Source: a virus (taxonomy: Duplodnaviria; Heunggongvirae; Uroviricota; Caudoviricetes). Taken from it: a DNA stretch of 64,000 nt. The stretch spans positions 10,116 through 74,115 of the IMG/VR virus record IMGVR_UViG_3300046779_001955, one strand, 5' to 3'. This document shows, in pieces, positions 4,868 to 58,226 of this stretch. The notes beneath the pieces were generated by a model. That model worked only from the letters and a program-made list of their open reading frames with translations, was not told where the DNA came from and did no database searches. Position numbers and translations under genes: made by a program. Every line of letters begins with the position of its first letter. The stretch's first letter is position 1.

Positions 4868-5454
4868 TATTGTCTCTTGTTTATGACTTTATCTGCTAGT
4901 CCGTATGCCACAGCATCTTCGGCGGTCATGAAATTGTCTCGTTCCATATCCTTTTCAAGTTCACTATAATCCTTACCAGTGTGCGTAGCGTAGATATCAG
5001 TCAAAACTTTTTTCCAACGCAGCAATTCTCGTGCTTGAATTTCAACGTCAGTTGCTTGCCCTGATGCACCACCTAGGGGTTGATGAATCATGTGTCGAGC
5101 ATTGGGTAGAATGAACCTGTGTCCGTGTGCCCCGGCCATTGCCAGTAAAGAACCCATGCTGGCTGCTTGGCCCAACACAATAGTATGTATCGGACAACGC
5201 ACAAATTGCATAGTATCATAGATACTCATACCTGCTGTGACACTGCCGCCCGGTGAGTTAATGTAAAAATTAATGGGCTTGTCAGGATCTTCGCTTTCTA
5301 GGAATAGCATTTGAGCTACGATCAGGCTAGCTGAGTGACTTGAAACTTCGGTATCTAGCATGATTACACGGTCCTTTAGCAGCCTAGAATAGATATCATA
5401 GCTGCGCTCGCCCTTGGAAGTGTGCTCGATTACTATGGGAACCAGGTTTGGCAT
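4867..5454 (-). CDS. clpP: ATP-dependent Clp protease proteolytic subunit ClpP
   Basis: [23 protein letters not shown] motifs; start at ATG 5454 with AAGGAG SD (ORF-track start 5511 is an upstream extension). Confidence 0.95.
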
Positions 5455-7069: not shown

Positions 7070-7611
7070 TCAGTGATATTAAATTTCTGTGCTTCTTCGG
7101 CGCTGAGCCAAATATCTTGCGGTGGTAGCAAATACGTGCGTATATCATCTTCGCTCATACCAGTACACTGTTGATAGTGATTAAGCATCCTGGTCTGTGT
7201 TAGATCAAATTCTTTGATCCTTGCAAATAATTCGTGTGCCTTGCCATCACTTTCCCAAGTAAACTGATGGCTCAATATTGATGTGTTAGGAGTTAAAACT
7301 CTACGTCCTGGTGCACCCGATATAAAGATCAGCAGTGCTGCCGAAGCAATTTGTCCCAGGCCAACTGTTTTAATTGGGGTCGGTGAACTCATCATTACAT
7401 CAATAAGAGCAAAGGCCGCGCTCATGTCACCACCCTCGCTACATATCATCAACAGTAATTCTTTCTTCTTTCGTCGTGTTACATAATTAGATTGAAGAAT
7501 CCATTCAATAACTGGTTTAACACTGTCTATGGTGATTTCTCCCATGAGAAGAAACATTCCCGAATCATTTATCGAAGACACTGCTACTTCATCATCTTTT
7601 TCTGCTGTCAT
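7045..7611 (-). CDS. ClpP-family protease paralog (ClpP2-like), catalytic triad apparently intact
   Basis: SEGG, GQIASAA (Ser), LSHQF (His), Asp near C-term aligned to ClpP triad. Confidence 0.8.
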   Translation of the reverse strand: MTAEKDDEVAVSSINDSGMFLLMGEITIDSVKPVIEWILQSNYVTRRKKKELLLMICSEGGDMSAAFALIDVMMSSPTPIKTVGLGQIASAALLIFISGAPGRRVLTPNTSILSHQFTWESDGKAHELFARIKEFDLTQTRMLNHYQQCTGMSEDDIRTYLLPPQDIWLSAEEAQKFNITDHVSVFAR

Positions 7612-20959: not shown

Positions 20960-21742
20960 ATGCGTATTTCATTTGATTTAATTTCAGACTTACATATCGA
21001 AACCTGGGATAGTTTTGATTGGACTGGCCAAGCCACAAGTCCATTCTGTATTGTGGCCGGGGACGTTGCCAAAGATAGAACCATAGTTTTAGAAACCTTG
21101 GAACACCTGAACCAATGCTATCGTATGGTATTTTACATTGATGGCAACGATGAACACAAGTATTATATGGACGATGTTGGCCGAAGCTATCGAGAGTTAG
21201 CTGCCTCTATTGATGCCCTGGACAATGTTGTGTATCTACAAGACAATGTTGTTATCATGGACGGCATAGCTGTTATTGGCACCAATGGCTGGTGGGGGTT
21301 TGACTTTGATCCCAATATTGATATAAATCAAACCAAGTATTGGTGGGAAGAACAACAAGTTGATCCAACTAATGCTCGAATAGTTGAAGATCTCAGTAGA
21401 ACTGATGCTGCTTTTTTAATCAAAAGCATTCAAAGATTGCAGCGTCACCAAGATGTACGTCACATTGTTGTGGTAACTCACACCGTTCCAAGATATGATC
21501 TCATAAGCCATGATCTTCAACTTGAAGGAACCTATAGATTCAACTGTATGGGCAACAGTTTGATGGAACTGGCTCAACATGCTGATACAGAATCAAAACT
21601 ACACACTTGGTGTTTTGGACATTATCATAACTCAGTAGATAGATTCGTCAACGGTGTTAGATTTATCAACAACTGCCGCGGGCGTGGAGACACCGAGCAT
21701 AGTAACCCGGTGTATTATCCTAGACGTATTGAATTAGATTAG
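20960..21742 (+). CDS. calcineurin-like metallophosphoesterase
   Basis: DLHIE, GDV, GNDEH, GHYH metal-ligand motifs. Confidence 0.8.
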   Translation: MRISFDLISDLHIETWDSFDWTGQATSPFCIVAGDVAKDRTIVLETLEHLNQCYRMVFYIDGNDEHKYYMDDVGRSYRELAASIDALDNVVYLQDNVVIMDGIAVIGTNGWWGFDFDPNIDINQTKYWWEEQQVDPTNARIVEDLSRTDAAFLIKSIQRLQRHQDVRHIVVVTHTVPRYDLISHDLQLEGTYRFNCMGNSLMELAQHADTESKLHTWCFGHYHNSVDRFVNGVRFINNCRGRGDTEHSNPVYYPRRIELD

Positions 21743-22050
21743 GCTTCGGCTTCAATTTTAACTTGAAGCGGGTAGTTTTGAGTACGTGCGCTCACTGTGA
21801 CTTCAATGCCTTTTTGTTCGGCAAGTTCGTAAGGCAACACTGCCACAGTGGCCGAACCGGACTCGTGTATATCCATAGTGATATCATGAGCGGTAGTGGG
21901 AGTATAATCAAAGAACTCAACTAAGCTACCAATAACAAATTCCATGCTGGTTTGATTGTCATTGAGATAGATCACTTTGTACATTGGTGGTTCTTTGATG
22001 GCTGTTTGTAGTTTTGTACGTGATTCAACGAGTGCGTCAGATTGTGCCAT
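21739..22050 (-). CDS. clpS: ATP-dependent Clp protease adaptor ClpS
   Basis: PPMYKVIYLNDNQTSMEFVI matches ClpS core; ATG 22050 with AAGGAA SD preferred over TTG 22080. Confidence 0.8.
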   Translation of the reverse strand: MAQSDALVESRTKLQTAIKEPPMYKVIYLNDNQTSMEFVIGSLVEFFDYTPTTAHDITMDIHESGSATVAVLPYELAEQKGIEVTVSARTQNYPLQVKIEAEA

Positions 22051-22104: not shown

Positions 22105-22545
22105 TTAGTTTGAGTAAGTGATTGCAATGCTCTTAGGCTTAATAACTTCAGGTAACTGACGCTCAAACCTTACAGTTAAAATACCATCGCGGCATACAGC
22201 ATCAACAACTTCAACATACTCACCCATGGTCCAGCTACGCATGAATTTACGATTACTGATTCCTTGATGCTTGTAGCTGTGTCCTTCGGGAAGCGCAGTA
22301 TCGCGCTTTTCACCAGTGATGATAACATCACCATCACGGGTAGCAACATCAATTTCACCTTGCGCAAAGCCAGCCACAGCAAGTTGTAGTTCAAAGGTAT
22401 TTTCGCCGGTTTCTACGATGTTGTAGGGAGGGTAGTTGTTATTGGCAGCATGATCAATTTGATTCATAATTCGATCAAATACGCGATCTACACCAATTGC
22501 ATTGCGGTAAAACGGGGTTAAATCAAAAGCAGTTACTTTAGTCAT
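22105..22545 (-). CDS. small heat-shock protein Hsp20 (IbpA-like)
   Basis: FDLTPFYRNAIGVDRVF ... GYPPYNI ... AVAGFA alpha-crystallin blocks; GAGGAG SD. Confidence 0.9.
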   Translation of the reverse strand: MTKVTAFDLTPFYRNAIGVDRVFDRIMNQIDHAANNNYPPYNIVETGENTFELQLAVAGFAQGEIDVATRDGDVIITGEKRDTALPEGHSYKHQGISNRKFMRSWTMGEYVEVVDAVCRDGILTVRFERQLPEVIKPKSIAITYSN

Positions 22546-22884: not shown

Positions 22885-23105
22885 CAGTAGAATTGACGAG
22901 GTAATTGTTGGCTGTTGAGGTATTTCTTCCAACGAGCACGAGCAGAATTGCGCTTGATTTTTCTAGCTGTGGTAGGTTTAGTGTACTGTTGACGCTCCCG
23001 CAGATTTATCAACAGTTGCGATTCTGCAACTTTTTTCTTGAGTTTACGCAACGCTTTGTCAACATTGCCATCTTGACCCACATAAACTACTAAACCTCGA
23101 CGCAC
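22884..23105 (-). CDS. rpsU: ribosomal protein S21
   Basis: 73 aa, VDKALRKLKKKV ... RERQQYTKPT ... RKIKRNSARAR pattern. Confidence 0.85.
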   Translation of the reverse strand: MRRGLVVYVGQDGNVDKALRKLKKKVAESQLLINLRERQQYTKPTTARKIKRNSARARWKKYLNSQQLPRQFY

Positions 23106-24304
23106 TAGATGTTCTCCTTTGGTGTAGGGGTATTTACCTGGTCAAGATCAATTTCTACTAACTTTATTTCACGATCTTGATAGTGTTTTAGATTGTACAT
23201 GTGTGGCAACAAGATACGCTCTAATTCACTGTGCAAGCCCCGTGCTCCAGTTTTATTTGCTCGAGTTCTGCGAGCTATTTCTCTTAGACTTTCTGATGTA
23301 AATTTTAGTTCCACACTGTCTTGTTCAAACAACCATTGATACTGTGAAATGTAATTGTGTTTGATATCAGTGAGAATTGAAATTAATTGATCCTCATCTA
23401 GATCTGACAATGTGACCCAGCTCGGAAAGCGTCCCACAAACTCAGGAATCATACCAAACTTCATTAGATCATCAGGCACAACTTGACTTAGACTCACGGA
23501 TTCTCGTGAACCAACATCAGCGGCGAAGCCCATGGCAGTACCTTGTACACGATTCTTTACAATGGTGTTAAGCCCAACAAATGCTCCACCGGCAATAAAC
23601 AAGATATTGCGAGTGTTGATTTCAATCATTTCAAAGTTGGGATTTTTACGTCCAGCAACTGGGCTTACTCTACAGGTTGTACCTTCAACAATTTTTAGCA
23701 ATGCTTGCTGAACACCTTCTCCGGATACGTCTCTTGTGATAGATGCCGACTCACTCTTACGTGCAATTTTGTCTATTTCGTCAATAAACACAATTCCGCG
23801 TTCGGTTTTTTCAACATCACCGTTGGCAGCAATCAGTAGTCTAGATATCAATGTCTCGACATCATCGCCTACGTACCCAGCTTCGGTTATTGAAGTGGCA
23901 TCTGCAATGGCAAACGGAACATCAAGATAACGTGCCACAGTTCGTGCCAATAGAGTTTTGCCCGAACCTGTGGGACCAAGCATTAACACATTGGATTTTT
24001 CTATTTCTACGTCAGTGCTGGTATTGCTGATACGTTTGTAGTGATTGACAATTGACACTGCCAACATGATTTTGGCTTGATCTTGCCCAATGACATATTG
24101 ATCTAAAAAGTTTTTTATTTCAATGGGATCAAGCCTGCGTTGAATATCAACCTTGGGTGTTTCTACTGTGTCGTTTCCTAGCAGTTCTTGACATAGATCC
24201 ACACATTCATTGCAAATACCAACATGATCACCTACTATTAATTTTTTGACCTGATCCTTGTGCTTACCGCAAAAATTGCAGTGGTTAAATTGTTCTTGAG
24301 CCAC
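23105..24304 (-). CDS. clpX: ATP-dependent Clp protease ATPase subunit ClpX
   Basis: N-terminal C4 zinc finger (CNFCGK...CNEC), Walker A GPTGSGKT, ClpX-specific blocks. Confidence 0.95.
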   Translation of the reverse strand: MAQEQFNHCNFCGKHKDQVKKLIVGDHVGICNECVDLCQELLGNDTVETPKVDIQRRLDPIEIKNFLDQYVIGQDQAKIMLAVSIVNHYKRISNTSTDVEIEKSNVLMLGPTGSGKTLLARTVARYLDVPFAIADATSITEAGYVGDDVETLISRLLIAANGDVEKTERGIVFIDEIDKIARKSESASITRDVSGEGVQQALLKIVEGTTCRVSPVAGRKNPNFEMIEINTRNILFIAGGAFVGLNTIVKNRVQGTAMGFAADVGSRESVSLSQVVPDDLMKFGMIPEFVGRFPSWVTLSDLDEDQLISILTDIKHNYISQYQWLFEQDSVELKFTSESLREIARRTRANKTGARGLHSELERILLPHMYNLKHYQDREIKLVEIDLDQVNTPTPKENI

Positions 24305-39182: not shown

Positions 39183-40283
39183 TTATAGTGCTGGCAACTC
39201 ATCGTAGTCAATTTCATCACTCATGACTCCGATAACATAGTTAGTTGATTCGTTTTCCTGCAATGCAGTTTGCTTCTTGTGTGTATCAACATGTTTATTG
39301 AACCAAGGTATTGGAGTTGATCTTGGATAGGGTTCGTTGTATTTGATACCAATTTCTTTGAGTGCATTGAATGCTGTATAGTCCATGAAGTCTTTGAGAA
39401 TGTTGGCGTTTAGACCAATCACTGGACCTTTTTGGAACAGATAGTCTGCCCAGGCCTTCTCTTCGCGTACTACATCAAGGTACATGTCATAAACATCGGC
39501 CAAGCATTGCTCTTTTGCTTCGGCAAATCGGGGATCGTCTTTGACTACTTGGTTAATTAGATAGCCGGTCCAATCTCTGTGTAATATTTCGTCTTGTAAA
39601 ATCAATCCAATAATATTACCATTGCCAATAAAGATTTTGTTTTCTACCATGGCAAGGCTAGTAGCAAAAGAAACCATAAAGCGTAGAGCTTCCAAGGCAT
39701 AACTGGCATTGAGTGCTAACCAGATCGCACGGATATGTTCGCTGTCGTCAATCTTCTCACCAGTCTCTCGTCTGCAGTTGATCAAGTGCAGTCGATCATA
39801 GAAATATCCAACGTTTGATGCCATGTCAACAATGGGCTGTGTGTCATGTATGGAGTTGAATACTTCCTTGGGTACATTGTAGATATTGCGAATAATGTGT
39901 GAATAACTGCGACTATGAATATTTGTTTCAAAGAATGTCCAGTTATAGATCAAGGCCTCAAGTTCAGGTAATGATACCACCGGTGTAAACACTTGGCTGG
40001 GACCACGTCCTTGCAAACTGTCTAGAGCCGTTTGACGTAGTAAGTTTGAAGTAAAGATATGTCGAACAGTTTCCGAAGATTCTTTGAAATCAGTGGCATC
40101 CTTGGTTAGATTCACTTCTTCGGGCACCCAAAAGAATCCGCGGGCTTCTTGCTCAAACTTTACTATCTTGGGATACTTAACTTCTTCAAAACGCTGAATG
40201 GTAACAGGACCTTCGGGATCCAAGAACATTTTGCGTTGTAGATAATTTGTTTGATGTTTTAAATCGTACTGTGCTTTTGACAT
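39183..40283 (-). CDS. nrdB: ribonucleotide reductase class Ia small subunit
   Basis: ferritin-like di-iron ligands (E...EILH), C-terminal acidic tail. Confidence 0.95.
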   Translation of the reverse strand: MSKAQYDLKHQTNYLQRKMFLDPEGPVTIQRFEEVKYPKIVKFEQEARGFFWVPEEVNLTKDATDFKESSETVRHIFTSNLLRQTALDSLQGRGPSQVFTPVVSLPELEALIYNWTFFETNIHSRSYSHIIRNIYNVPKEVFNSIHDTQPIVDMASNVGYFYDRLHLINCRRETGEKIDDSEHIRAIWLALNASYALEALRFMVSFATSLAMVENKIFIGNGNIIGLILQDEILHRDWTGYLINQVVKDDPRFAEAKEQCLADVYDMYLDVVREEKAWADYLFQKGPVIGLNANILKDFMDYTAFNALKEIGIKYNEPYPRSTPIPWFNKHVDTHKKQTALQENESTNYVIGVMSDEIDYDELPAL

Positions 40284-40422
40284 TTAATTTTACCTAATTT
40301 TTTATTGTATCTTATTGTAAACATAGAATTGCAAATTCTCAAAACAAAACCAAGTTGATTACTTGATCTAGGATAAAAATTCAATCCCTGTTTAACACGG
40401 TGGCCTTCGTCTCTAATGTGTA

Positions 40423-42768
40423 TCATAATTTACAGGCCTCGCAGTCATCTTCGTAGTCTTCGGCTATTAGCATTTCATACTCACGTTTTAGTTGCTCCAA
40501 GGATTCAAGTTCGTCAGAGTCTTGACTTTTAGATCCTTGCTTGTTGATCAAACTATAGTAAAAAGTTTTAATACCCCAGTGGTGTGCTTGCATCAAATTC
40601 TTGGCAATCAATGTTGTAGGCACTTTGCGGTTAGCAAAGTGTGCAGGATTGTAGAATGTGTTTGTTGATATTGATTGGTCTACATAGGCTTGTAGCACTG
40701 CTGCTGTTTTGAGATATCCAACACAGTCAGTTTGATCCCACATCAATTGATATTTGTTTTTAAGTTTATGATAATCTGGTACTACTTGTGTAAATGATCC
40801 TGCTTTGGATTCCTTTACAGTAATCAAACTCATCGGTATCTCAATACCGTTAGTACTATTAATGACAACAGAACTACTCTCAACGGGAGCAATTGCCATA
40901 AGTGTTGCATTCCTAACTCCATAACGTTTCATATCCTCTCGTAGTGGTTCCCAATCAAGTTCAGGAGAAAAATCTGTTAATTCATTGGCTCCTTCGGCAC
41001 GTAGTTCCCAGGGGAAAGTACCTTGACCATACCTTGTACGATCGCTGTCTCGGCAGCGTCCACGTTCTCGAGCTAGCTCAACGGTAGCTTCTGTAAGATA
41101 AAACGCTTGGTGTTCGATCCACGATTTAACTTCTTTAAGAGCATCGTCGTCCCCATAATTGAGGCCTCGCTTGGCGTGCCAATAAGCAAGGTTTGTAATG
41201 CCAATACCAAGCGGCTGGATTTCTTCATTACTAAGGCGACTCTGTACGGAGAGAAAGTCTTGATAGTCAAGTATGTTACAGAGGCTGCGTTGAAGAATTC
41301 TACAAGCGCGGCGCATATCTTCCGGATGTCGGAACGCTCCCCAATTGATTGAGCCCAAGGTACAGAGTGCAATTCTTCCGGACTCATCATCTAATCTCCT
41401 GAATGGTCGGGTAGGTAAAAGTATTTCGCAACATAGGTTTGATTGATAAATTGTGTGCCATTCAGGATCAAACGGACCTTGATTCATTACATTGTCAATA
41501 AACACAAGATAGATGCGCCCTGTGTCTGTGCGCTCTTTTAAAATTCCACTTTTAAAAACTTCTTCTGCTGCAATAACTTTCCGGCGCAGCTTAGGATCTT
41601 TCTCGTATTTGACGTATAGATCTTCAAATCGTTGTGTGTCTCTGTAGAAAGCTTCATATAGGTCCGGTACTTCATTGGGATCAAAAAAGGTAATGTCTTC
41701 TTTATTCTTGAACCGTCTCCAGAAGAACGCAGAAAGAACCACCCCATAATCCATGTGTCTAACTCTTGTTTCTTCTGTGCCTTGATTGTTTTTAAGCACA
41801 ATAAGATCATCAAACTGATGATGCCAAATTGGATAGAACACAGTGGCACTGGCATTGCGAATACCGCCTTGTGAACAACTGCGAAGATCGCCAAACCATT
41901 TCTTTAGGAATGGAATCATTCCTGTGTGCATGATCTCGCCGCCGCGTATGGGTGAGCCCAATGGGCGTAAACGACCAATCTCCAAACCAATGCCAGCACG
42001 TTTGCTGGCATACTTGGCCATCATCTCCCCACTAGCAAATATGCTATCCAGATCGTCGTCACTGCGGATAAGAACACAACTGCTAAACTGTTTAGTAGGA
42101 GTTCCAAGACCAGCGAGCACAGGAGTAGCAAGGGTAAAAAGACCATCACTAGCAGCGTTGTAATACTCTTTGATATACCGCATTCGGGCAGTGTTAGGAT
42201 CTTCACGATGGAACACCGTGGCTGCTGCAACCATGTATCTGACCTGGGGAGTTTCATATATTTCCTTGGTACTGCGATTCTTGACTAGATATTTTTCAAT
42301 TAACTGTTCAATAGCCGCATAGCTGTACTGTTCATCGCGACTATGATCAATAATTTCATCCATGCGATCCCAGTCTTCTTCGGAATACCACTCCAACAGG
42401 TCCGGAGTGTACAAACCGGTCTCAACGTTTCGACAAACAATGTCATATAAACGTGGAACTTCATAACTTCCATAAACGTCTTTGCGTAGCATAGTCAGTC
42501 GTTGTTTACCGGCTACGTATTGATAATTGGTGTGTCCTACATCAGGATTTGCATCTACATCAATTAGATCCACACAGGCTCTAAGTGTAATTTCATCAAT
42601 TTCTCGGGTTGATATTCCGTCATAAAAATGTAGCTGTGCTTTTATTTCAATCATTGATTGGCTAACGTCTGCGGTTCCGGTGCAGACTTTGGCGATTTGA
42701 CCCTGCCATTTTTCTAGCGCCAAAGGCACACGGCTACCATCTCGTTTGACTACTGTGATTGTTGCCAT
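40423..42768 (-). CDS. nrdA: ribonucleotide reductase class Ia large subunit
   Basis: N-terminal ATP cone (VVKRDGSRVP), active-site Cys blocks, C-terminal CEAC. Confidence 0.95.
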   Translation of the reverse strand: MATITVVKRDGSRVPLALEKWQGQIAKVCTGTADVSQSMIEIKAQLHFYDGISTREIDEITLRACVDLIDVDANPDVGHTNYQYVAGKQRLTMLRKDVYGSYEVPRLYDIVCRNVETGLYTPDLLEWYSEEDWDRMDEIIDHSRDEQYSYAAIEQLIEKYLVKNRSTKEIYETPQVRYMVAAATVFHREDPNTARMRYIKEYYNAASDGLFTLATPVLAGLGTPTKQFSSCVLIRSDDDLDSIFASGEMMAKYASKRAGIGLEIGRLRPLGSPIRGGEIMHTGMIPFLKKWFGDLRSCSQGGIRNASATVFYPIWHHQFDDLIVLKNNQGTEETRVRHMDYGVVLSAFFWRRFKNKEDITFFDPNEVPDLYEAFYRDTQRFEDLYVKYEKDPKLRRKVIAAEEVFKSGILKERTDTGRIYLVFIDNVMNQGPFDPEWHTIYQSNLCCEILLPTRPFRRLDDESGRIALCTLGSINWGAFRHPEDMRRACRILQRSLCNILDYQDFLSVQSRLSNEEIQPLGIGITNLAYWHAKRGLNYGDDDALKEVKSWIEHQAFYLTEATVELARERGRCRDSDRTRYGQGTFPWELRAEGANELTDFSPELDWEPLREDMKRYGVRNATLMAIAPVESSSVVINSTNGIEIPMSLITVKESKAGSFTQVVPDYHKLKNKYQLMWDQTDCVGYLKTAAVLQAYVDQSISTNTFYNPAHFANRKVPTTLIAKNLMQAHHWGIKTFYYSLINKQGSKSQDSDELESLEQLKREYEMLIAEDYEDDCEACKL

Positions 42769-45555: not shown

Positions 45556-45974
45556 TTAGTAACCCAAATACTAGATTTTGTCAAAAATTCTACACCGGCA
45601 CTATCGCGATAATCCGTACGATAAAACACACGCTCTATGCCACTTTGATAGATTAGTTTTGCACACTCTAGACAAGGTGCATGTGTGACAAATAAACTAG
45701 CACCTAGTCCGCTGTTGGCACTGCGGGCCAATTTGGCTATAGCATTTGATTCTGCGTGTAGAACTTCAGGTTTGGTTGTTAGTACAGCACCATCTTCAAA
45801 GAACTCTTCGTGTTCACAATCATTGTCCCAGCCCGCAGGCATGCCGTTGTAGCCATAACTTATAACAGTATCGTCTTTAACTATGACAGCACCAACATGT
45901 AATCTTCGAGCGTGACTTAGATCTGACGCACGTTGTGCCCAGTCCATGTAAAGATCTATATATTTCTGTTTCAT
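45549..45974 (-). CDS. dCMP deaminase
   Basis: HAESNAI and PCLECAKLI zinc-binding motifs. Confidence 0.9.
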   Translation of the reverse strand: MKQKYIDLYMDWAQRASDLSHARRLHVGAVIVKDDTVISYGYNGMPAGWDNDCEHEEFFEDGAVLTTKPEVLHAESNAIAKLARSANSGLGASLFVTHAPCLECAKLIYQSGIERVFYRTDYRDSAGVEFLTKSSIWVTKC

Positions 45975-46297
45975 ATTCTGAAACTTTCTCCGCAGCCGCA
46001 GCGGTCTCGTTCTCGTGGATTTATAAAATCAAAACCCTCGTTTAATCCCTGGCGTTTCCAATCCATTGTGAGTCCGTCAACATAAGGCAAATCTTTGCCG
46101 TTGACATAAATTTTAACGCCATGGCTTGTGTACCCCATCCAGTCTCTGGTCACCGGTGGATTATCAACATACTCTAATTTGTATGCCAGTCCTGAACAGC
46201 CAGTGGTACGTACTCCTATAGAAATCCCAACACCTTTTCCTCGACTTTCAAGTTGTTGCTGCACTTTACGAGCAGCTAGTTCGGTTAGAGTAATCAT
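45971..46297 (-). CDS. iscA: Fe-S cluster assembly protein IscA/HesB family
   Basis: MITLTELAARKV start, C-terminal CGCGESF. Confidence 0.85.
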   Translation of the reverse strand: MITLTELAARKVQQQLESRGKGVGISIGVRTTGCSGLAYKLEYVDNPPVTRDWMGYTSHGVKIYVNGKDLPYVDGLTMDWKRQGLNEGFDFINPRERDRCGCGESFRI

Positions 46298-46361
46298 AGT
46301 TAAATTATACAGTCCTATTAGAATTAACGCAAATTGTGCAGCGCCAAATATAAATATTTTT

Positions 46362-46952
46362 ATGTTAACAATATTCATTCACGGTGCAACTGCCAGCGGC
46401 GCCAGCTTCAATTATTTACGCTCAGATTTAGATGGCGAACATCTAGTGTTAGAGTATGACAGTGAAGATGGGTTTTTCTACAATTTAGATCAACTCAGCA
46501 AACAGATTGAAGCTGCGCGATCTCGTGAACTTTTCTTTATTGGACACAGCCTAGGTGGAATCTACAGTTTGAGTCTTGCTGATCGATTTCCCAAACAAAC
46601 TCGTGGTGGTATTACTATATCTACTCCCTACGGTGGTTCGGAAATAGCGCCATTTCTCAAATACTTTGTTCCGTTCAACCGATTGCTCAAAGAAATAGGT
46701 CCAAATTCCAAGCCCATACAACACGTCAAAAATATCACTCCATTGGTTCCTTGGCACAATATTGTCACAGTCAAAGGAAATAGTCCCTGGATTGCTGCTG
46801 CCAACGATGGAGTAGTCACAGTTGATTCACAGCGGCATCACGAATGTATTGAGTATATTGAAATGTCGTCTAACCATTATGAAGTTTTAATGAGTCCTGA
46901 AGTGGTAAATCTTGTCAAACAAAAACGAAGTCAGGCCTTACGCAAGAAATAA
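46362..46952 (+). CDS. alpha/beta-hydrolase (lipase/esterase-like)
   Basis: GHSLGG nucleophile elbow; start at ATG 46362 (upstream ORF extension overlaps iscA antisense). Confidence 0.55.
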   Translation: MLTIFIHGATASGASFNYLRSDLDGEHLVLEYDSEDGFFYNLDQLSKQIEAARSRELFFIGHSLGGIYSLSLADRFPKQTRGGITISTPYGGSEIAPFLKYFVPFNRLLKEIGPNSKPIQHVKNITPLVPWHNIVTVKGNSPWIAAANDGVVTVDSQRHHECIEYIEMSSNHYEVLMSPEVVNLVKQKRSQALRKK

Positions 46953-47356
46953 GTTTTAGCCGAACGATTGATCAATTGTCTAATACGATCTTTCAAAGGC
47001 ACATAGGATTTGTAGCCAAAAGTTCTAGCAAACTTTTGCACAAGGCGATCGTAAAGAGGAATCTTGTCTGCTTCCTGTGCTGAAAACGTTATTTTTTCAG
47101 GATGATGACTTTGCACAAACTCTCGTAATATCTGCATGACTTTACCAAACACTTCAAACTCACCGCCTTGACCTGATGTAGTTATTCTGCCACCTACAGT
47201 AAACGCAATGTCATACCCACCGTCATTGGTCTCAGTAAACAGTACATCAATAATTCTGCCTCGACTGTCTTGCGTGGTGGCCCTGGTGTCAGTGAAAAGC
47301 TTTCGCCAGTGTATTGGTTCGTCGTAGCGGGTTTGTAGAACTTCATTAATTTTCAT
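46931..47356 (-). CDS. hypothetical protein with N-terminal MKINE motif
   Basis: shares N-terminal M-K/R-I/L-N-E with two neighbours. Confidence 0.5.
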   Translation of the reverse strand: MKINEVLQTRYDEPIHWRKLFTDTRATTQDSRGRIIDVLFTETNDGGYDIAFTVGGRITTSGQGGEFEVFGKVMQILREFVQSHHPEKITFSAQEADKIPLYDRLVQKFARTFGYKSYVPLKDRIRQLINRSAKTYFLRKA

Positions 47357-47726
47357 GTTTTGCTCGATAGTCAGCCAATGCTGCTTTGATTGCGTCTTCG
47401 GCTAGAATTGAACAGTGTATCTTTACCGGAGGGAGTGCAAGTTCTTCTGCAATCTGAGTATTTTTGATCTGACTTGCTTCATCAAGAGTTTTACCCTTGA
47501 CCCATTCTGAAACCAGCGACGACGAAGCAATTGCCGAGCCGCAGCCATAGGTTTTGAATTTTGCATCGGTAATGACGTTGTCTTCGACTTTGATTTGAAG
47601 TTGTAGTACATCACCACAGGCCGGTGCACCAACTAATCCTGTGCCTACACTGGGATCGGTTCGATCTAGTTTACCCACGTTTTTTGGATTTTCGTAATGT
47701 TCTAAAACCTGTGATGAATATGCCAT
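47346..47726 (-). CDS. iscU: Fe-S cluster scaffold IscU
   Basis: GAPACGD, LPPVKIHCS motifs. Confidence 0.95.
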   Translation of the reverse strand: MAYSSQVLEHYENPKNVGKLDRTDPSVGTGLVGAPACGDVLQLQIKVEDNVITDAKFKTYGCGSAIASSSLVSEWVKGKTLDEASQIKNTQIAEELALPPVKIHCSILAEDAIKAALADYRAKHEN

Positions 47727-47748
47727 GACAAATTATAGACTAGAAGAT

Positions 47749-48099
47749 TTATTTTTGAGCACGTTTGGCCATGTTGGCCACAACATTCTGAGCTTGATCA
47801 GTGTTCATTTCGCCTTTGGTTCCCTGAGTGTCAGCATCTTCGCCAGCACCTTTGAATACAATGCGTCCGGTTCTATCATCGCCTTCGACATTGGCTATGA
47901 TATGACTCAGGGGTGGTTGTCCAACCATTTGTTTGAGTTGATCAACTGTGAGGGGGATACCCATTTGACTTGCTAGTTTAATGAAACTAGCAGTAGAAAA
48001 TGTCTTGGCAACATTTTCGTCTTGAGCACGATTAAGGAGAAACTGGCTTAGTGCAACCAGTTTCCCATTGTCTCGCATTTCAACTTCGTTGATGCGCAT
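47749..48099 (-). CDS. hypothetical protein with N-terminal MRINE motif
   Basis: 116 aa. Confidence 0.5.
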   Translation of the reverse strand: MRINEVEMRDNGKLVALSQFLLNRAQDENVAKTFSTASFIKLASQMGIPLTVDQLKQMVGQPPLSHIIANVEGDDRTGRIVFKGAGEDADTQGTKGEMNTDQAQNVVANMAKRAQK

Positions 48100-48824
48100 T
48101 ATCTACGCTTTCTGCCAAGGCCCTTGCCATCAGGAGGAGGTAAGTCAATTTCAGCATCAACATCTAGTTCGCCGCCGGGAGGAGGCATTTCACCTGCCAT
48201 GCCACCTGGAGCTGCGCCACCAATGTCTGCGCCTGGTGCACCAATGCCTGGAATTTCACCAGGAGCACTACCAATTTGCTGTCCAGTGACCACTGACAAT
48301 GCCTGTTCAAGTTGCTGTTTGGCACCTTGTAAATTTTGAATCATTGTTTGTAATGCTGCGTTGGCATCGTTGTTGAATTGATCAGCTTGTTGTGTACCTA
48401 CTTGGTTGCGAATTGAGTCTACTAGAGCAGGTAATTCTTTAAACTGCATTTCTGACACATCTTCAAGCATGCCTTGTACACTGTCAACCATGTCTTGTGC
48501 TGCAAGAACAACCTGTGCTTGCTGCACTTCACTTTCTTGTAGACGTTGTATACGACGAATTTCACGTTCAGCTGACAGCTCACGTAGACGCTGTGTGAGT
48601 CCTTGCTCCATCATCACTAGCTTGAGATAGCTTTGATTACGCTCGCTTTGATGGAACGCAGGGCTAGCACGATGTTCGCTAACTAATTTAGATACGCGGC
48701 CCAATAGCTGACGTGTTTGCACAGTATTGAGCTGTTCAAATTGCACACGTCCGCCAAAGTAACTTTCAAATACTTTAGCGATATACTTTGATTGGCGCTG
48801 CGCGGCCAGTTCGTTGAGTTTCAT
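48099..48824 (-). CDS. coiled-coil protein with Gly/Pro-rich C-terminus (scaffold/internal-protein-like), N-terminal MKLNE
   Basis: 241 aa; heptad-rich middle; GxPG repeats at C-terminus. Confidence 0.5.
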   Translation of the reverse strand: MKLNELAAQRQSKYIAKVFESYFGGRVQFEQLNTVQTRQLLGRVSKLVSEHRASPAFHQSERNQSYLKLVMMEQGLTQRLRELSAEREIRRIQRLQESEVQQAQVVLAAQDMVDSVQGMLEDVSEMQFKELPALVDSIRNQVGTQQADQFNNDANAALQTMIQNLQGAKQQLEQALSVVTGQQIGSAPGEIPGIGAPGADIGGAAPGGMAGEMPPPGGELDVDAEIDLPPPDGKGLGRKRR

Positions 48825-51409: not shown

Positions 51410-52144
51410 TCACGTGGGATTCATTAAGAAAATACATTGGCCCGTGGCAATTGCGCTGGTATTTGATCCACCATAGGGGTTGGCACTTTGTGTTTTTTGC
51501 AGGGCCGAAGTTGGAGTAGTAAAGTTGCCGGTGTAGACTGCAATGTTGGATACACGGAAATTTGTGATATCTCCGCCAAACTGTTCACTGGCTAGGCCGC
51601 CAGCGGCCTTGCCGCCAATATAGAATTTCTGAGTGCCACCGGTGATGTTAGTGGCGTTGGCCACTCCGCCAAATGCACTAATCAAAGTACCATTTTTGTA
51701 CAAATTAAGACGACTAGAAGCTCTTACTAATGCAAAGTGTACCCACTGATTTTTAAAACTACCTAGTATACCAATACCCATATTGACGAGTGTGTTGGGG
51801 CTGAACCATACATAAGGATTAGTACCTTCTAAACTAATACCTTGCACTGGGTAGTTTACCCCTGTGGTATTGCTTTGCCAGTACACTCGAGGAAATGCGT
51901 TTGAGTCCGTTTCATATTGAAACCACTCCACAGTAAAATTGCCAGTACCAAAACTCAACCCACTATAGTTTTCATAGTAAACATAACTGGTCGTTGCACC
52001 GGTAAATCTATAACTGCTGCCTGACCCAAATGGCGATGTTGATACCACAGTTGCATTACTGACCGCTGTGGGAGTATCGTAAGGGCTTGCAGGAACCGTG
52101 TCCTGTATAGTCACACCTTGTAGATTTACACCTTGAATCAGCAT
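51410..52144 (-). CDS. structural protein with concanavalin/LamG-like composition
   Basis: 244 aa; Gly/Thr/Asn-rich beta-sandwich-like pattern. Confidence 0.45.
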   Translation of the reverse strand: MLIQGVNLQGVTIQDTVPASPYDTPTAVSNATVVSTSPFGSGSSYRFTGATTSYVYYENYSGLSFGTGNFTVEWFQYETDSNAFPRVYWQSNTTGVNYPVQGISLEGTNPYVWFSPNTLVNMGIGILGSFKNQWVHFALVRASSRLNLYKNGTLISAFGGVANATNITGGTQKFYIGGKAAGGLASEQFGGDITNFRVSNIAVYTGNFTTPTSALQKTQSANPYGGSNTSAIATGQCIFLMNPT

Positions 52145-54042
52145 TAGTTGTTACGAGCTCGATTTGTAGCAGTAAATCCGCCAGGTAGTCTGTTCACTGC
52201 TTTGGCATACCCTGCGGGTGTGGCCATGACCCAGCCTTCTTGTCCGGGATGTTGTAGATCCAACTGATGTAGTATGTCCATTTTTAAATCATGCAATAAT
52301 AACCAAATACTAAATGCTGCTGACAATGCTTCGGCATTGCTCTTAGGGCTTTGTAGATATTCTACAATATTGGCATACTTGCGCGGTGTCACTGTTGATT
52401 GTAGCCAGTCGCTAAAACCACCAACAAGATTGCCAAAGCCACGACCCACACGGCTATTGATATAATCCACGCAAAGCTTGGCTAGATCTGTGATCTGTTG
52501 TTGACGCAGTTCAACTGGATTAAACAGTTGATTAATTTGTTGACCGTGTTGCGCAATCAACTGACGAATCTGTTGACCCATATCACGATTTGCCTTGATA
52601 TTTGTACCAGCAATGGGAGGAATCAATAACAAGCCAGGCACTGGTTTGAATTTAATTCCATTGATGGGTTGTTTGGCCGACCCTTGGTCAGCATACATTG
52701 TATGCATGGCAATAGCAGTGTCGGCCCCGGCAATTTGTTGACCAAGCGCACTGTTTAAAGGAATTTTATATTCCACAGTGTTGGGTGTGAATACTGCAAA
52801 GCCGTGATCTTCGTGCCAAGGTTGCTGGGGATAGAACAACAAGTCGCCTTTGACATATCCACGCTGTGACTTTGGAAATGCTGCTTCTAGCTTGGTCCAT
52901 AAGTCTAGATAAATTGGAGCCAGAGTTTCCACACGATTTGCCATGTTGCCTTTGACTCGAGCTGCATCATCTCTGCGTTGCATGTCTTTGGAAATGGCTC
53001 TAGGTGATGTAAACAATCCATCGTAGGTCTTGGCATCAAAACCTGACCCGTCTGTGAGTACAAACTCTCCGGTGCTGGGTTTACGTCCAAAAACCACAGC
53101 GGGCTTGCCATCCCATTTAACTGTAGTGGTTGCGGGATCTTGTGCGGCTGCGGCAATGATTTTTAGTGCTTCATTGGCTCCTGCAGTGCCACGGCGGAAC
53201 ACTAAATCTTCAATGTGCTCAATGCCTTTGGCACGGCCACCAACATTTTCAGTTTCGGGTATAAAACGATCTTCTACCAAGGCCATCATGCCCTGATTAA
53301 CAATGCGATCCCGCAGACGTGCAATAAAACTCACATCACTTTCCTGCACCTGCCCTGGTGGTGTGAGCCCGTCGCGAGCTAGATATTGTTCAAAGTCTGC
53401 GACCTTGGCAGCACGATCTTTGTCACGGGCCAACGCAGCATAGATAGATTCAACATTCTTTAAGTTTTCTCTTGTGGCACGTGGTCCCAACAGCATACGA
53501 GCTGCTTCGTCAGGATCCATTGTGACAACATTGTTGGTAGTACGCGATGCCACACCATTGCTGCCAATCTTCAAACCCAATTGCTTGGCCACTGAACTCA
53601 TTAAGATGTTGCGATATACACCTTTGTATTCCGAATCTTCGCCGCCAGCATAAAAGAATGTGCCCCAATCTAGATTAGGAAAAAACATAAAATCAGTCTG
53701 CACATAGCCTTGATCGGGTCTACCAGCAATGGGAGTGCGCAAATGAACTTCACCTTTGCTGCGGATCCAATCACGAGGTTCTAATCGATGAGCCTGTGCC
53801 CAATGGTTTAATTTTGCCACCAACTGTTCTTTGGTTACTTCGCTGAGATCAACTGCTAGATCAAGATCTCCGGAATCAGGTCTACGTCCGGTAGATCCCA
53901 ACCAACGTTCTTTGGGGAAATCAATACCGGTTACTTGTTCTATCCATTTAATGGTTGTGGGAATATCGGTTTGGCGAATACGTCCAGTGAGAGGATTTCC
54001 GTCACCATCTTTGAAAACATTACCACCTTCGTTTAGATTCAT
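52144..54042 (-). CDS. large protein with nucleotidyltransferase-fold-like motif
   Basis: start at MNLNEGG (TAATG overlap with upstream gene); GSTGRRPDSGDLDLAVD resembles GS-x9-DxD NTase signature. Confidence 0.45.
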   Translation of the reverse strand: MNLNEGGNVFKDGDGNPLTGRIRQTDIPTTIKWIEQVTGIDFPKERWLGSTGRRPDSGDLDLAVDLSEVTKEQLVAKLNHWAQAHRLEPRDWIRSKGEVHLRTPIAGRPDQGYVQTDFMFFPNLDWGTFFYAGGEDSEYKGVYRNILMSSVAKQLGLKIGSNGVASRTTNNVVTMDPDEAARMLLGPRATRENLKNVESIYAALARDKDRAAKVADFEQYLARDGLTPPGQVQESDVSFIARLRDRIVNQGMMALVEDRFIPETENVGGRAKGIEHIEDLVFRRGTAGANEALKIIAAAAQDPATTTVKWDGKPAVVFGRKPSTGEFVLTDGSGFDAKTYDGLFTSPRAISKDMQRRDDAARVKGNMANRVETLAPIYLDLWTKLEAAFPKSQRGYVKGDLLFYPQQPWHEDHGFAVFTPNTVEYKIPLNSALGQQIAGADTAIAMHTMYADQGSAKQPINGIKFKPVPGLLLIPPIAGTNIKANRDMGQQIRQLIAQHGQQINQLFNPVELRQQQITDLAKLCVDYINSRVGRGFGNLVGGFSDWLQSTVTPRKYANIVEYLQSPKSNAEALSAAFSIWLLLHDLKMDILHQLDLQHPGQEGWVMATPAGYAKAVNRLPGGFTATNRARNN

Positions 54043-54791
54043 TATTTGGTTCCTGTTGGCGGTGGTGTTTGTGCTGGTGGTGCACCACCAGCCACGGGTC
54101 CAGCTGATGTTCTCAGCAATCCTAGTCCTGCCAACAACGCATTGACAGCTTGATTGTTTGTGGGTGCGACCTGTTGATTTTGTCCTGCCGGCCATTGCTG
54201 TTGTAACTGAGCAATCTGTGGAGCCATACGTTGCATCATGACCTGAGATGCTGGAGTCAACTGTGGAGATCTAGATGGGTTGTAAACCTGACTCACTGTG
54301 GCCGCTTGAACATTTTGCACAAGACTTTCTAAATGATGTGCAACAAGATTGTTATCTTCGGTCTTGGTCCCGGACACAATACCACGAATATCTGCTTGCA
54401 ATGCTGCTTTGTTTCGCTTTGGCAGGTTATTAACTGCGTCTCGGCCAGCAAACAGTCTAGTATTAATATAATCAGTCAACATTGATGTCAGTGCAAAAGA
54501 ACTTAATTTGCTGGGACTATCAACTTTCATTTGTGCCATTTTAGACGCTACTATACTAGCCCAGGCTGCCATTGCTGCTTCAAGCTGCTTGGGCTGCAAG
54601 GGTTGTAGGAGCTGCTGAGCCACTTTTGCTTCCTGTCCCGACGCAGCCTGTGGAGTTTTACCTGTGATGGCTTGTCCGGCTATGCCTGCCAGTGCGCCAC
54701 CTATTGCTCCCCAGTTGACCTCACTAATTGGTTTCTTTTTGCTTTGGGTAATGTCAGATATTTGCATCAGTTTTCCTAACGGTCCTAACAA
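54042..54791 (-). CDS. Gln/Ala-rich hypothetical protein
   Basis: 249 aa; low complexity. Confidence 0.5.
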   Translation of the reverse strand: MLGPLGKLMQISDITQSKKKPISEVNWGAIGGALAGIAGQAITGKTPQAASGQEAKVAQQLLQPLQPKQLEAAMAAWASIVASKMAQMKVDSPSKLSSFALTSMLTDYINTRLFAGRDAVNNLPKRNKAALQADIRGIVSGTKTEDNNLVAHHLESLVQNVQAATVSQVYNPSRSPQLTPASQVMMQRMAPQIAQLQQQWPAGQNQQVAPTNNQAVNALLAGLGLLRTSAGPVAGGAPPAQTPPPTGTK

Positions 54792-55002
54792 ATTTATTAG
54801 GATCTTTGAATTTTATAGCATTTAAAAATTTTCTCTGTAGATTTTCTGCTTGATCAGCAGGAAAATCCTGTTCAATTTGTTCAAATAATCTAATAGCTGA
54901 TTGAATAATGTTGTCAGCGCGATTTTCCAGCACATGCTTGCGATCGCGATCAACATACATCGAGTTCAATTCTTCAAGAATACTACGTGTCTTTTTTTGC
55001 AT
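54754..55002 (-). CDS. hypothetical protein
   Basis: 82 aa. Confidence 0.45.
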   Translation of the reverse strand: MQKKTRSILEELNSMYVDRDRKHVLENRADNIIQSAIRLFEQIEQDFPADQAENLQRKFLNAIKFKDPNKFVRTVRKTDANI

Positions 55003-56516: not shown

Positions 56517-58226
56517 ATGGCACACTCAGACTTAGAACAAATTCAATTACTCATGGCCCAATTTCGTAGGCCCTGCCCCGAAGATCTAGAATATCAAGAC
56601 CGACTGGTTGAAGAATTTGGTATTATAATTGATCGACGATTCACAGACTATTTTTTAAAAATACGACAGATACTAGATTTAAATTCTGATATACCTCACA
56701 TGACTCGAGGATCAGCGGGATCTAGTCTTGTATGTTACTTAATGGCAATAACTGATGTTGATCCCATTGAGTGGAAAATTCCGTTAGCACGTTTCTTAAA
56801 TCCTTTCCGCGACGATTTACCCGACGTAGACATAGATGTTCCGCATCACAGTCAAGAACGAGCTATGCAACGTATATTTGATGCATGGCCTGGGCGCACT
56901 GCACGTATATCAAACTATGTGATGTACAAGGAAAAATCAGCACGTAGAGAAGCTGCAAAGAGATTAGGTGCACAGGGTAGATTACCTAGAGACATTGATT
57001 ACAAAAAATTAGGCATTGATGTTGAAGAAGCCCAGCGTATAGAAAAAAAACTAATGGGCAAAAAACGTTGCTTGTCAAAACACTGCGGTGGCGTGATTGT
57101 GTTTGATCGTAAACTACCGCAGAGTTTATTTCGTGATGATAATCTCATCTTGCTGGACAAAAACGAAGTGGAAGATCTTGAACACCTCAAGGTTGATATT
57201 CTAGCAAATCGTGGACTTAGTCAACTCATGGAGATTGACCCTACTCGTAGAGTACACGAATATCCCATGGAAGACGATCTAACCTCTGAACTACTGAGTC
57301 AGGGCAATGTTTTGGGTGTGACTCAAGGAGAGTCCCCGGCCATGCGTAGATTGTTCAGAGCAATAAAACCAACTTCGGTACACGACTGCGTGTTTGCCAC
57401 TGCACTTGTGCGTCCGGTAGCTATTGAAGGACGAAAAAAAGCTTCTTGGTTTCACGACTGGACAGCAACCGGAGTCCGAGAACATGCTATTGTATGCGAA
57501 GATGATGCCATAGAACGCATCATGAAATTGATTGGTGTCAACGCATATGAAGCTGATATGTATCGTCGAGCCTTTGCAAAAAAGAACGAGGAAAAGGTCA
57601 TGGAGTTTATGGCACGCTTGGGCGATCATCCTGAACGAGATTCCATACAAAAAGAAATGCAGAATCTAGCAGGGTTTGGCCTTTGTCGAGCTCATGCTGT
57701 TAATCTTGGTAGATTAATCTGGGCATTGGCCTATCAAAAAGCACATAATCCTAGAGAGTTTTGGAGAGCTGTGTTAAAACATTGCCAGGGATCTTATGCT
57801 AAATGGGTCTATCGTAACGAAGCCAAGCGAGCTGGATGGGATCTACGTGATCTTGGTTTTTCAAATTGGATCATAGAAGATCCAATCCAAGCGTTTAAAG
57901 ATTACGGGGCCTGGAACACACCTGGATTTCTACCTAACATGGGAGTGCAAGGTCTTTATCTTGACAGATATGAATTTGCTGGCATAGTGGCAAACTCCCG
58001 AGTGTTCAAACGCGATCGCCAACAGTATATACATTTTATTACACTGGGAGTAGGCGAAGGTGAATATGTAGATTTAATCGTAGACCGTCCTGTGAAATAC
58101 AGTACGGGCAGTGTGATTATAGGTCAGGGCGAAATAAAATCTCGTGATGGCAGTCAATTTTTACAAGTGGATCGGAAAAATATCAAGGCCGTGGATATTG
58201 ACGACTACTTCAAGGTGTCTTTTTAA
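56517..58226 (+). CDS. minimal DnaE-like (Pol III alpha family, C-family) DNA polymerase, copy 1
   Basis: TRGSAGSSLVCYLMAITDVDPI, PDVDIDV catalytic Asp pair, RAHAVNLGRLIWALAYQKAHNPREFW fingers block; start at MAHSDLEQ; no PHP or C-terminal OB domains. Confidence 0.85.
   Translation: MAHSDLEQIQLLMAQFRRPCPEDLEYQDRLVEEFGIIIDRRFTDYFLKIRQILDLNSDIPHMTRGSAGSSLVCYLMAITDVDPIEWKIPLARFLNPFRDDLPDVDIDVPHHSQERAMQRIFDAWPGRTARISNYVMYKEKSARREAAKRLGAQGRLPRDIDYKKLGIDVEEAQRIEKKLMGKKRCLSKHCGGVIVFDRKLPQSLFRDDNLILLDKNEVEDLEHLKVDILANRGLSQLMEIDPTRRVHEYPMEDDLTSELLSQGNVLGVTQGESPAMRRLFRAIKPTSVHDCVFATALVRPVAIEGRKKASWFHDWTATGVREHAIVCEDDAIERIMKLIGVNAYEADMYRRAFAKKNEEKVMEFMARLGDHPERDSIQKEMQNLAGFGLCRAHAVNLGRLIWALAYQKAHNPREFWRAVLKHCQGSYAKWVYRNEAKRAGWDLRDLGFSNWIIEDPIQAFKDYGAWNTPGFLPNMGVQGLYLDRYEFAGIVANSRVFKRDRQQYIHFITLGVGEGEYVDLIVDRPVKYSTGSVIIGQGEIKSRDGSQFLQVDRKNIKAVDIDDYFKVSF

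Follow-up and report, generated by a model that had tools for sequence, protein, structure and literature searches.

We analysed a stretch of 64,000 nucleotides (hereafter the window, meaning the whole stretch) of the viral record IMGVR_UViG_3300046779_001955, which is part of an uncultured jumbo phage of a PA5oct-like, T4-related lineage. Three of its genes, here called A, B and C, encode proteins that carry a common signature in their first six residues (MKINEV, MRINEV and MKLNEL, respectively). These N-termini are probably T4-type propeptides or head-targeting leaders, borne by internal virion proteins and cut after Glu by a gp21-type protease. According to this reading, the N-terminus, of the form (K/R)-(L/I)-x-(E/D)-hydrophobic after the initiator Met, would dock the protein to the assembling prohead core, and a gp21-type (Peptidase S77) prohead protease would then remove the leader by cutting after Glu in an (L/I/V)-x-E context. 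The leader of gene C would comprise about 20 residues, namely the docking hexapeptide, a variable spacer and a V-F-E site followed by Ser, and a further L-x-E site followed by Ser would split a hypervariable spacer from the conserved C-terminal domain. We thus take A, B and C to be virion proteins, most likely internal head or core proteins, and the products of two other genes of the same 8-kb block, a gene whose product starts MQISDI and a DUF6267 gene, probably belong to the same class. The mechanism is the one known from T4; the signature and its set of cargo proteins in the PA5oct-like lineage appear to be undescribed in the literature searched.

An N-terminal hexapeptide shared by unrelated proteins

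Gene A (46931-47356, 141 amino acids), gene B (47749-48099, 116 amino acids) and gene C (48099-48824, 241 amino acids) all lie on the minus strand, where codons 1-6 encode the signature M-K-I-N-E-V at 47339-47356, M-R-I-N-E-V at 48082-48099 and M-K-L-N-E-L at 48807-48824, respectively. An earlier note, made from the sequence of this DNA, had singled out these three genes for their common start. The genes and the motif are as it described them, but its set was too small, since the MQISDI gene and the DUF6267 gene carry the signature too. None of the three products was assigned to a Pfam family; gene A matched PHROG 16075 weakly, and gene C matched PHROG 14154, annotated 'virion structural protein', at 7e-12. 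As the note had also stated, the gene C product is coiled-coil-like with a Gly/Pro-rich tail, which is acidic as well, and it ends in a basic C-terminus.

Among the about 110 non-overlapping open reading frames (ORFs) of the window that served as background, A, B and C are the only ones that start with M[KR][IL]NE. A column-wise shuffle of residues 2-6 among these ORFs gave an expectation of 0.007 such starts for a window, and three were not reached in any of the 20,000 shuffles; the motif is thus not frequent at random among the N-termini of this phage, a possibility that the note had raised against its own proposal. When the window was taken together with 80 related loci, the looser motif M-x-[LI]-x-[ED]-[LFVIM] was found at the start of 175 of 1392 ORFs, compared with 19 of 6088 internal Met contexts (0.3%).

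The codons used for residues 2-6 differ among the three genes (AAA ATT AAT GAA GTT in A, CGC ATC AAC GAA GTT in B and AAA CTC AAC GAA CTG in C), meaning that the likeness is one of peptide and not of DNA. Synonymous variation was also observed within families: Leu3 of C is encoded by five codons, and Glu5 of B by GAA in 23 cases and by GAG in 19. The profiles of B and C are unrelated (hhalign probability 0.5%), which ruled out the paralogy of these two genes. Taken together, the shuffles, the codon diversity and the unrelated profiles of B and C exclude chance, DNA-level signals and paralogy as sources of the likeness.

The motif is kept in 123 of the 142 distinct sequences of family C, in 109 of the 122 of family B and in six of the nine of family A, as well as in the genes upstream of DUF6267. 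In the 123 motif-bearing sequences of family C, M1 is followed by Lys2 in 114 cases and by Leu3 in all of them, residue 5 is Glu (81) or Asp (42) and residue 6 is Leu (108) or Phe (15). The 109 sequences of family B all have Leu or Ile at position 3, with Glu5 in 108 and Phe, Val, Leu or Ile at position 6; M1, R2 and E5 are shared without exception by the 18 homologues of B from databases. Clustering of family C at 50% identity gave 1249 representatives, and the 39 full-length sequences among the best 40 of these, an independent sample, all start with M-[KI]-L-x-[ED]-[LFI]. The proteins that bear the signal at their very N-terminus are therefore otherwise unrelated: apart from about the first six residues, A, B and C have nothing in common with one another, with DUF6267 or with the genes upstream of it. 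Since divergent homologues in unrelated families retain the motif while its codons vary synonymously, selection acts on the peptide itself. The mean identity among the leader-bearing cargo proteins goes down to 35-48%, and B ends in a conserved basic MAKRA motif.

This gene set is widespread. At least 145 relatives of C were found in IMG/VR, on contigs of up to 360 kb, and a scan with a degenerate C-family DNA pattern matched at least 120 IMG/VR contigs; a pattern search of IMG/VR using gene A gave no match. C is directly followed by B in 58 of the 80 related loci, and a metagenome contig of 105 kb at NCBI has the same gene order as the window. In an AlphaFold2 model of B (18 sequences, mean predicted local distance difference test score (pLDDT) of 61.7), residues 1-8 have a pLDDT below 50 and adopt no secondary structure. 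Such a predicted position outside the fold would be compatible with a linear signal, and we count it as weak evidence.

Candidate cleavage sites downstream of the hexapeptide

In A, B and C, an (L/I)-x-E triplet occurs within the first 5-20 residues or so, as the I/L-N-E at positions 3-5. Gene C contains two further sites on the minus strand. The second one, V18-F19-E20 followed by Ser-Tyr (48765-48773), is the candidate cleavage site at the end of the 20-residue leader; the third one, L95-Q96-E97 followed by Ser (48534-48542), is located directly before the conserved C-terminal domain (EVQQAQVVLAAQDMVD…). Both positions are kept across the family. An [LIV]xE with its Glu at residues 18-20 is present in 116 of 123 sequences, with highly variable residues 7-16 between the first two sites. 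In 38 of 40 representatives, the third site, [LI]xE[SAG], precedes the conserved core by at most seven residues; across the family, 44 to 343 residues separate this core from the N-terminus. The spacer of family C is hypervariable and of low complexity, rich in A, Q, G, P and T, and the C-terminus is conserved and basic (LGR-x-RR).

Outside the window, five of eight A-family relatives have a second (L/I)xE followed by Ser, with SFD or SFN following in four of them; they read, for instance, MKLSEITE before SFDS and MKIKDIIDE before SFDS. Gene A of the window, with its 141 amino acids, has no second (L/I)xE followed by Ser.

Counterparts in PA5oct are virion-associated

No deposited phage is close to the window at the DNA level. 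A DNA search of the block against deposited phages matched iscU alone, and tblastn of C and B against deposited phages gave no match. It was the 82-amino-acid gene heading the block (54754-55002, minus strand; start MQKKTRSILEEL) that pointed to PA5oct, a jumbo phage in culture, and to other phages of 350-470 kb. Its homologue in PA5oct is gp259 (tblastn, 47% identity, 3e-14), annotated 'virion structural protein', and it matched PHROG 11854 at 1e-15. The window is collinear with positions 144-181 kb of PA5oct: common to both is a primase, DnaB, the 82-amino-acid gene, a run of 'structural proteins', an exonuclease, a spike-like protein and ribonucleotide reductase, and the order continues with ClpX-like, Hsp20, ClpS, ligase and ClpP genes.

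Within this collinear frame, gene A is a homologue of gp135 (blastp, 1e-10 to 4e-10), which also has 141 amino acids and starts MHLFEL, and gene C is a homologue of gp247 (family hidden Markov model (HMM), 1.8e-19; blastp, 5e-13), which starts MFLKDVKITE; gene B is the positional counterpart of gp246. All three PA5oct proteins keep the signature, and all three are flagged as virion proteins by electrospray ionization tandem mass spectrometry (ESI-MS/MS) of whole virions. The PA5oct record (NC_071039.1) contains 445 coding sequences (CDS), 93 of which carry the ESI-MS/MS flag, and this is the number of virion proteins given by Lood et al. 2020 (PMC7318152).

The motif is enriched among these virion proteins: nine of the 16 PA5oct CDS with the loose motif are virion proteins, as against 84 of the 429 others (one-sided Fisher p=0.0017, odds ratio 5.3). 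When a second [LIV]xE by about residue 11 was also considered, the figure was six of seven (p=4e-4). Along with gp135, gp246 and gp247, the proteins gp104, gp105, gp254, gp279 and gp333 show the same N-terminal signature and were detected in virions (PMC7318152); these proteins are annotated only as 'structural protein'. Several N-termini of PA5oct resemble 10-residue leaders (MRLNEINLIE, MKILEFNLTE, MKLSEICILE and MKINDIITE). Neither in the PA5oct paper (PMC7318152) nor in the RaK2 paper did we come across a shared leader or its processing, and our literature searches yielded no account of this leader for PA5oct or RaK2-type phages.

A T4-type head module in the lineage

Looking at the PA5oct genome, we found a head module in T4 gene order, with the portal gene gp334 followed by gp333, gp332, gp331, gp330 and gp329. 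The gp331 product belongs to Pfam Peptidase_S77, that is, to the gp21 type (5e-24), and gp329 is the Gp23 capsid protein (1e-96). Between the protease and capsid genes, gp330 occupies the scaffold position (gp22 of T4) and was undetected in virions, and gp333, beside the portal gene, is a virion protein of 73 amino acids that starts MKINDIITE.

Environmental head modules of the same kind were found in at least 80 IMG/VR loci. In the 80 that were listed, the capsid proteins are 75-83% identical to that of PA5oct, and an S77 protease is present in 77. An N-terminal (L/I)xE is found in these modules on the capsid protein (MATKLFES), on the protease (MANKLYEY), on the protein in the scaffold position (MAKKIDEILSES) and on the gp333-like protein (MKAKDLLVEF). 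On a contig of 347 kb (the one behind locus L089), a homologue of the 82-amino-acid gene lies 7 kb downstream of the capsid gene. The capsid protein of the lineage is very highly conserved and is represented by at least 8000 clusters at E<=1e-50 against that of PA5oct, the best 120 listed being 76-100% identical.

Likeness to the leaders of T4 internal proteins

In T4, gp21 cleaves after L/I-X-E, and the capsid targeting sequence corresponds to the first 10 residues of IPIII (PMC9026906); the first 10 residues of gp24 are removed (PMC9958956). As read from the T4 genome, the N-termini are MAKINELLRE for gp24, MKTYQEFIAE for the internal proteins IPII and IPIII, MKTFKEF…ITE19 for IPI, MELITE for Alt, MEGLIE for gp67, MLLIPE for gp68, MNEPQLLIE for gp21, MLKEQLIAE for gp22 and MIDKDYIAE for inh. 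The A-K-I-N-E-L of gp24 is nearly identical to the K-I-N-E-V and K-L-N-E-L of the window, although gp24 is a capsid-shell protein whereas those of the window are small, mutually unrelated proteins. Like the proteins of the lineage, gp24, gp67, gp68, Alt, gp21 and gp22 have an N-terminal (L/I)xE within their first 4-10 residues.

IPI to IPIII resemble the window set in that a short peptide stands at the very N-terminus of proteins with no other relation, beginning with Met-Lys, with an acidic and then a hydrophobic residue at about positions 5-7 and with an (L/I)xE inside the first 10-20 residues or so; moreover, a gp21-type protease occurs in T4 as well as in the lineage. Unlike the T4 proteins, the set considered here has its first (L/I)xE already at positions 3-5, in the consensus M-K-(L/I)-x-(E/D)-hydrophobic, its likely cut would fall about 9 to 30 residues in, depending on the family, and its cargo families are unrelated to the T4 internal proteins. 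The leader looks portable here, DUF6267 carrying it only in this clade.

Three other jumbo phages, phiKZ, 201phi2-1 and SPN3US, also have many internal head proteins, as well as ejection proteins, with propeptides cut after Glu, with redundant sites, and their proteases are diverged gp21 homologues; they belong to a different lineage (Chimalliviridae and relatives). The context recognized by the phiKZ-type protease is S/A/G-x-E, with a small residue at P3 (PMC9026906). At every conserved site in the families studied here, Leu, Ile or Val, and not Ser, Ala or Gly, occupies P3, and a propeptide of the phiKZ type was rejected on this ground.

The DUF6267 gene and the gene before it carry the same signature

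The DUF6267 gene (52144-54042, minus strand; Pfam DUF6267, 9e-28) encodes 632 amino acids from a corrected start. The longest ORF begins at 54195; the TAATG overlap with the upstream gene and the homologues starting MKLLEGG, MNIFEGG and MQINEGG place the real start at 54042 (MNLNEGG). The upstream gene (54042-54767, minus strand) encodes the 241-amino-acid protein that starts MQISDI and that contains a second site, I14-S15-E16 (54720-54728), with a Gly/Ala-rich stretch behind it. In related loci, the genes found in its place start MKINEFKKTEQLDEG, MQIHELTQHPLNEG, MKLNEVNRPDKLSEA and MQIFEITARRRQKIDE. In genes upstream of DUF6267, the candidate cut would fall after MKINEFKKTEQLDE and MQIHELTQHPLNE, each followed by Gly, and after MKLNEVNRPDKLSE, followed by Ala.

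Short forms of DUF6267 in related loci have a leader of 20-30 residues, MNL(S/T)ESL…(L/I/V)xE and then Ala, Asp or Gly, directly before the conserved KGHLDHPED. The DUF6267 proteins of cyanophage S-CAM9 and of Vibrio phage 2.275.O are leaderless and begin at the conserved motif (MAKNTHLEHLED), indicating that the leader is a modular add-on of this clade. In loci L021-L078, the short form has about 385 amino acids and the long one, which is that of the window, about 630, with an extra N-terminal domain of about 330. The K-x-D-G motif of DUF6267 (VKWDGKP) resembles that of covalent nucleotidyltransferases (ligases and capping enzymes); a PDB sequence search with the DUF6267 protein gave no match. 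The assignment of PA5oct gp256 to DUF6267 was supported neither by Pfam nor by the family HMM.

Points against cleaved head leaders

Several observations weigh against this reading. First of all, there is no S77 protease, portal or capsid gene within the 64 kb of the window, whose only proteases are two ClpP paralogues that sit with ClpS and a ClpX-like ATPase. An S77 or Gp23 gene was never found on the same contig as a window-type C/B pair either. A capsid-protein scan of IMG/VR showed no contig overlap with C/B loci among the 80 loci listed, the degenerate C-family pattern scan showed no overlap with capsid contigs among its at least 120 matches, and the C/B contigs (86,474 bp and 105,347 bp) were not among the best 120 in a capsid search of a set of 5.8 billion proteins. 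The first of these two, a JGI contig, encodes a B protein identical to that of the window. When tblastn was run with the PA5oct head proteins against all C loci, the sole match was a 136-amino-acid capsid-fragment fusion in locus L052, and the window-end proteins used to extend the window retrieved short Logan contigs only. With no S77 gene found in the 64 kb or on a contig of its own subclade, we infer from its relatives that this genome encodes one: the protease search suggested by the earlier note was negative in the window but found an S77 gene in the collinear PA5oct and in nearly all of the listed head modules, as described above. In L052 (126-410, 804-1214, 1748-2050), the 136-amino-acid ORF joins a fragment resembling the conserved N-terminal part of Gp23 (…IIGVQPMTGPV…) to a small domain ending FLLRWA/RWS, and this small domain recurs in two neighbouring ORFs.

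The data on PA5oct have their own limits. B and gp246, which starts (M)KIKDILVE, are linked by position and size only (HMM, E=0.07). Seven of the 16 motif-bearing CDS were undetected in virions, including gp256 (MNIAEI). The list of 93 virion proteins includes ribonucleotide reductase, thymidylate synthase, GTP cyclohydrolase, DNA ligase, UvsX and FtsH-like proteins; with such obvious non-structural enzymes in the list, detection by mass spectrometry is no proof of a location in the head, and either cytoplasmic carry-over or the packaging of many enzymes would account for them. This detection also carries no information on N-terminal processing.

The remaining points concern the sites themselves. 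B has no conserved second site, 71 of 109 sequences having none within 40 residues, so its only candidate cut site would be residue 5, and the loss of just five residues would be unusually short. In 42 of the 123 family C members residue 5 is Asp, after which no cut by a T4-type protease would be expected; T4 proteins with Asp at the cleavage position are still targeted but are no longer processed (PMC9026906). Since Asp5 is frequent, the first site cannot be a universal cut site in C, whose second site has a conserved Glu. Residues 1-6 are thus more likely to serve for docking, with the cut at the second conserved (L/I/V)xE. Altogether, the T4-type (L/I)xE leader put forward in the earlier note is favoured by the conserved motif, the virion counterparts in PA5oct, the S77 and Gp23 genes of the lineage and the start of gp24, but it is weakened by Asp5 in a third of family C and by the lack of an S77 gene in the 64 kb.

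Alternative readings of the hexapeptide

The Asp5 variants, together with the absence of a conserved second site in B and a PA5oct proteome that lumps heads and tails, would also fit an assembly or docking signal that is no protease substrate, that is not specific to heads and that stays on the mature protein; it might, for instance, be bound by a common chaperone or by a factor that assembles tails or baseplates. We consider this reading unlikely, because the signature is also found on the capsid protein, the protease, the scaffold-position protein and the small protein after the portal gene of the head modules, and because an (L/I/V)xE with a small residue after it is conserved, where T4 cleavage sites typically lie, in C, in relatives of A, in the short forms of DUF6267 and in the genes upstream of DUF6267.

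The tolerance of Asp implies that an address label would be separable from the cleavage site, and a bolder form of the T4-type reading can be built on this. The hexapeptide M-K-(L/I)-x-(E/D)-hydrophobic would then be a portable address label for the prohead core that has been moved to new cargo, including the ligase-like DUF6267, and perhaps a cut after residue 5 would in addition create a Leu/Phe N-degron by which the phage ClpS and ClpP time the destruction of the protein. We put this forward as a speculation that is as doubtful as the uncleaved docking signal.

The earlier note saw a scaffold in the 241-amino-acid gene C product. It is indeed coiled-coil-like and acidic with several (L/I)xE sites, as a prohead scaffold would be, and the two small proteins could then be core proteins like gp67 and gp68 of T4. 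This now looks improbable. Another gene holds the gp22 position in PA5oct and in the 80 listed head modules, and that of PA5oct, gp330, was undetected in virions, as expected of a scaffold, whereas gp247, the homologue of C, was detected there and is encoded some 70 kb away. Moreover, the positional equivalents of gp67 and gp68 (gp333 and gp332) are already present beside the portal gene.

It is still less probable that the motif is a pro-N-degron, in which a cut after residue 5 would expose Leu or Phe to the phage ClpS and hand the protein over to Clp proteases, limiting the lifetime of surplus or injected protein. The window does encode ClpS, two ClpP paralogues and a ClpX-like AAA+ ATPase, and Leu or Phe occupies position 6 in all 123 C sequences and in 68 of the 109 B sequences, but this case is purely circumstantial. 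Val and Ile are not ClpS substrates in the bacterial N-degron pathway; residue 6 is commonly Val or Ile in B and in gene A, the Asp5 variants would escape a T4-type protease, and the leaders of T4 also have a hydrophobic residue after the acidic one and are not known to act in this way.

Least probable of all is a coincidence or a by-product of translation initiation devoid of any peptide function, for although highly expressed genes of bacteria and phages often have Lys as their second residue and A-rich early codons, A/T-rich early codons and Lys2 being what this reading supposes, and although four small early-region ORFs of PA5oct have the loose motif and no virion evidence, the shuffles, the conservation over 1249 representatives at 50% identity, codons that are synonymous-diverse and include the G/C-rich CGC, CTC, CTG and GAG, and the enrichment among PA5oct virion proteins all speak against it.

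What the leader would predict

If the signal works as in T4, the hexapeptide and a downstream (L/I/V)xE would together predict the head-loaded, and probably host-delivered, proteins of PA5oct-like jumbo phages, a lineage that is abundant in the environment and of which almost none has been cultured. Candidate ejected effectors, such as the ligase-like DUF6267 enzyme, could then be listed from sequence only, and the leader might be used for packaging foreign proteins into jumbo-phage heads, as is the case with the T4 targeting sequence. Should the address-label form be true, the injected protein set of this abundant and mostly uncultured lineage would be readable from the genome alone. The mechanism itself would not be new.

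Gene block organization and auxiliary genes

The genes of the block appear to be closely arranged. TAATG start/stop overlaps are found at the C/B junction (48099) and at the junction of the MQISDI and DUF6267 genes (54042), and gene A starts 11 nt inside the 3' end of iscU, which suggests translational coupling along the block. The T4 late promoter sequence TATAAATA gave four matches against 3.25 expected and was uninformative. The lone plus-strand ORF of the block (46362-46952, 196 amino acids from the first ATG) encodes a possible alpha/beta-hydrolase (GHSLGG motif). It had no match in PHROG and is convergent with gene A, sharing about 22 nt with the 3' end of the latter.

The iscU gene (47346-47726, minus strand; Pfam NifU_N, 2e-50; start MAYSSQ) does lie among the motif genes, between A and B, as had been noted before. 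It follows B in 29 of the 80 related loci and in the NCBI contig, and is absent at that position in PA5oct. An IscA/HesB gene is located at 45971-46378. Neither iscU nor iscA carries the leader, and both are auxiliary genes that were inserted into the block in one subclade. These iron-sulphur (Fe-S) genes sit inside the virion-protein block, and the window also encodes a radical S-adenosylmethionine (SAM) gene (2658-3719) and ribonucleotide reductase genes (39183-42768).

Elsewhere, the window encodes a DnaE-type polymerase, a DnaB helicase, a primase, a ribonucleotide reductase and an ATP-dependent ligase, together with a pectate-lyase-like spike and a lectin-fold baseplate-like protein. PA5oct differs from it by its replicative polymerase as well as by having no iscU in the corresponding place. 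The polymerase gene of the window (56517-58226, plus) is on the opposite strand and encodes a short DnaE-type Pol III alpha fragment of 569 amino acids, whose nearest deposited relative is in the 484-kb uncultured phage LR756508 (37% identity); in PA5oct, a 'DNA polymerase' gene (216595-221821) is split by a homing endonuclease.

The Clp set of the window is on the minus strand and comprises two ClpP paralogues (4867-5454, Pfam CLP_protease, 4e-81; 7045-7611, Pfam CLP_protease, 9e-27), the ClpS N-degron adaptor (21739-22050, 2e-23), Hsp20 (22105-22545) and the ClpX-like AAA+ ATPase (23105-24067). It is collinear with gp212, gp224, gp225 and gp229 of PA5oct. Given the S77 gene in the PA5oct head module, the label 'head maturation protease' on the ClpP of PA5oct is probably wrong.

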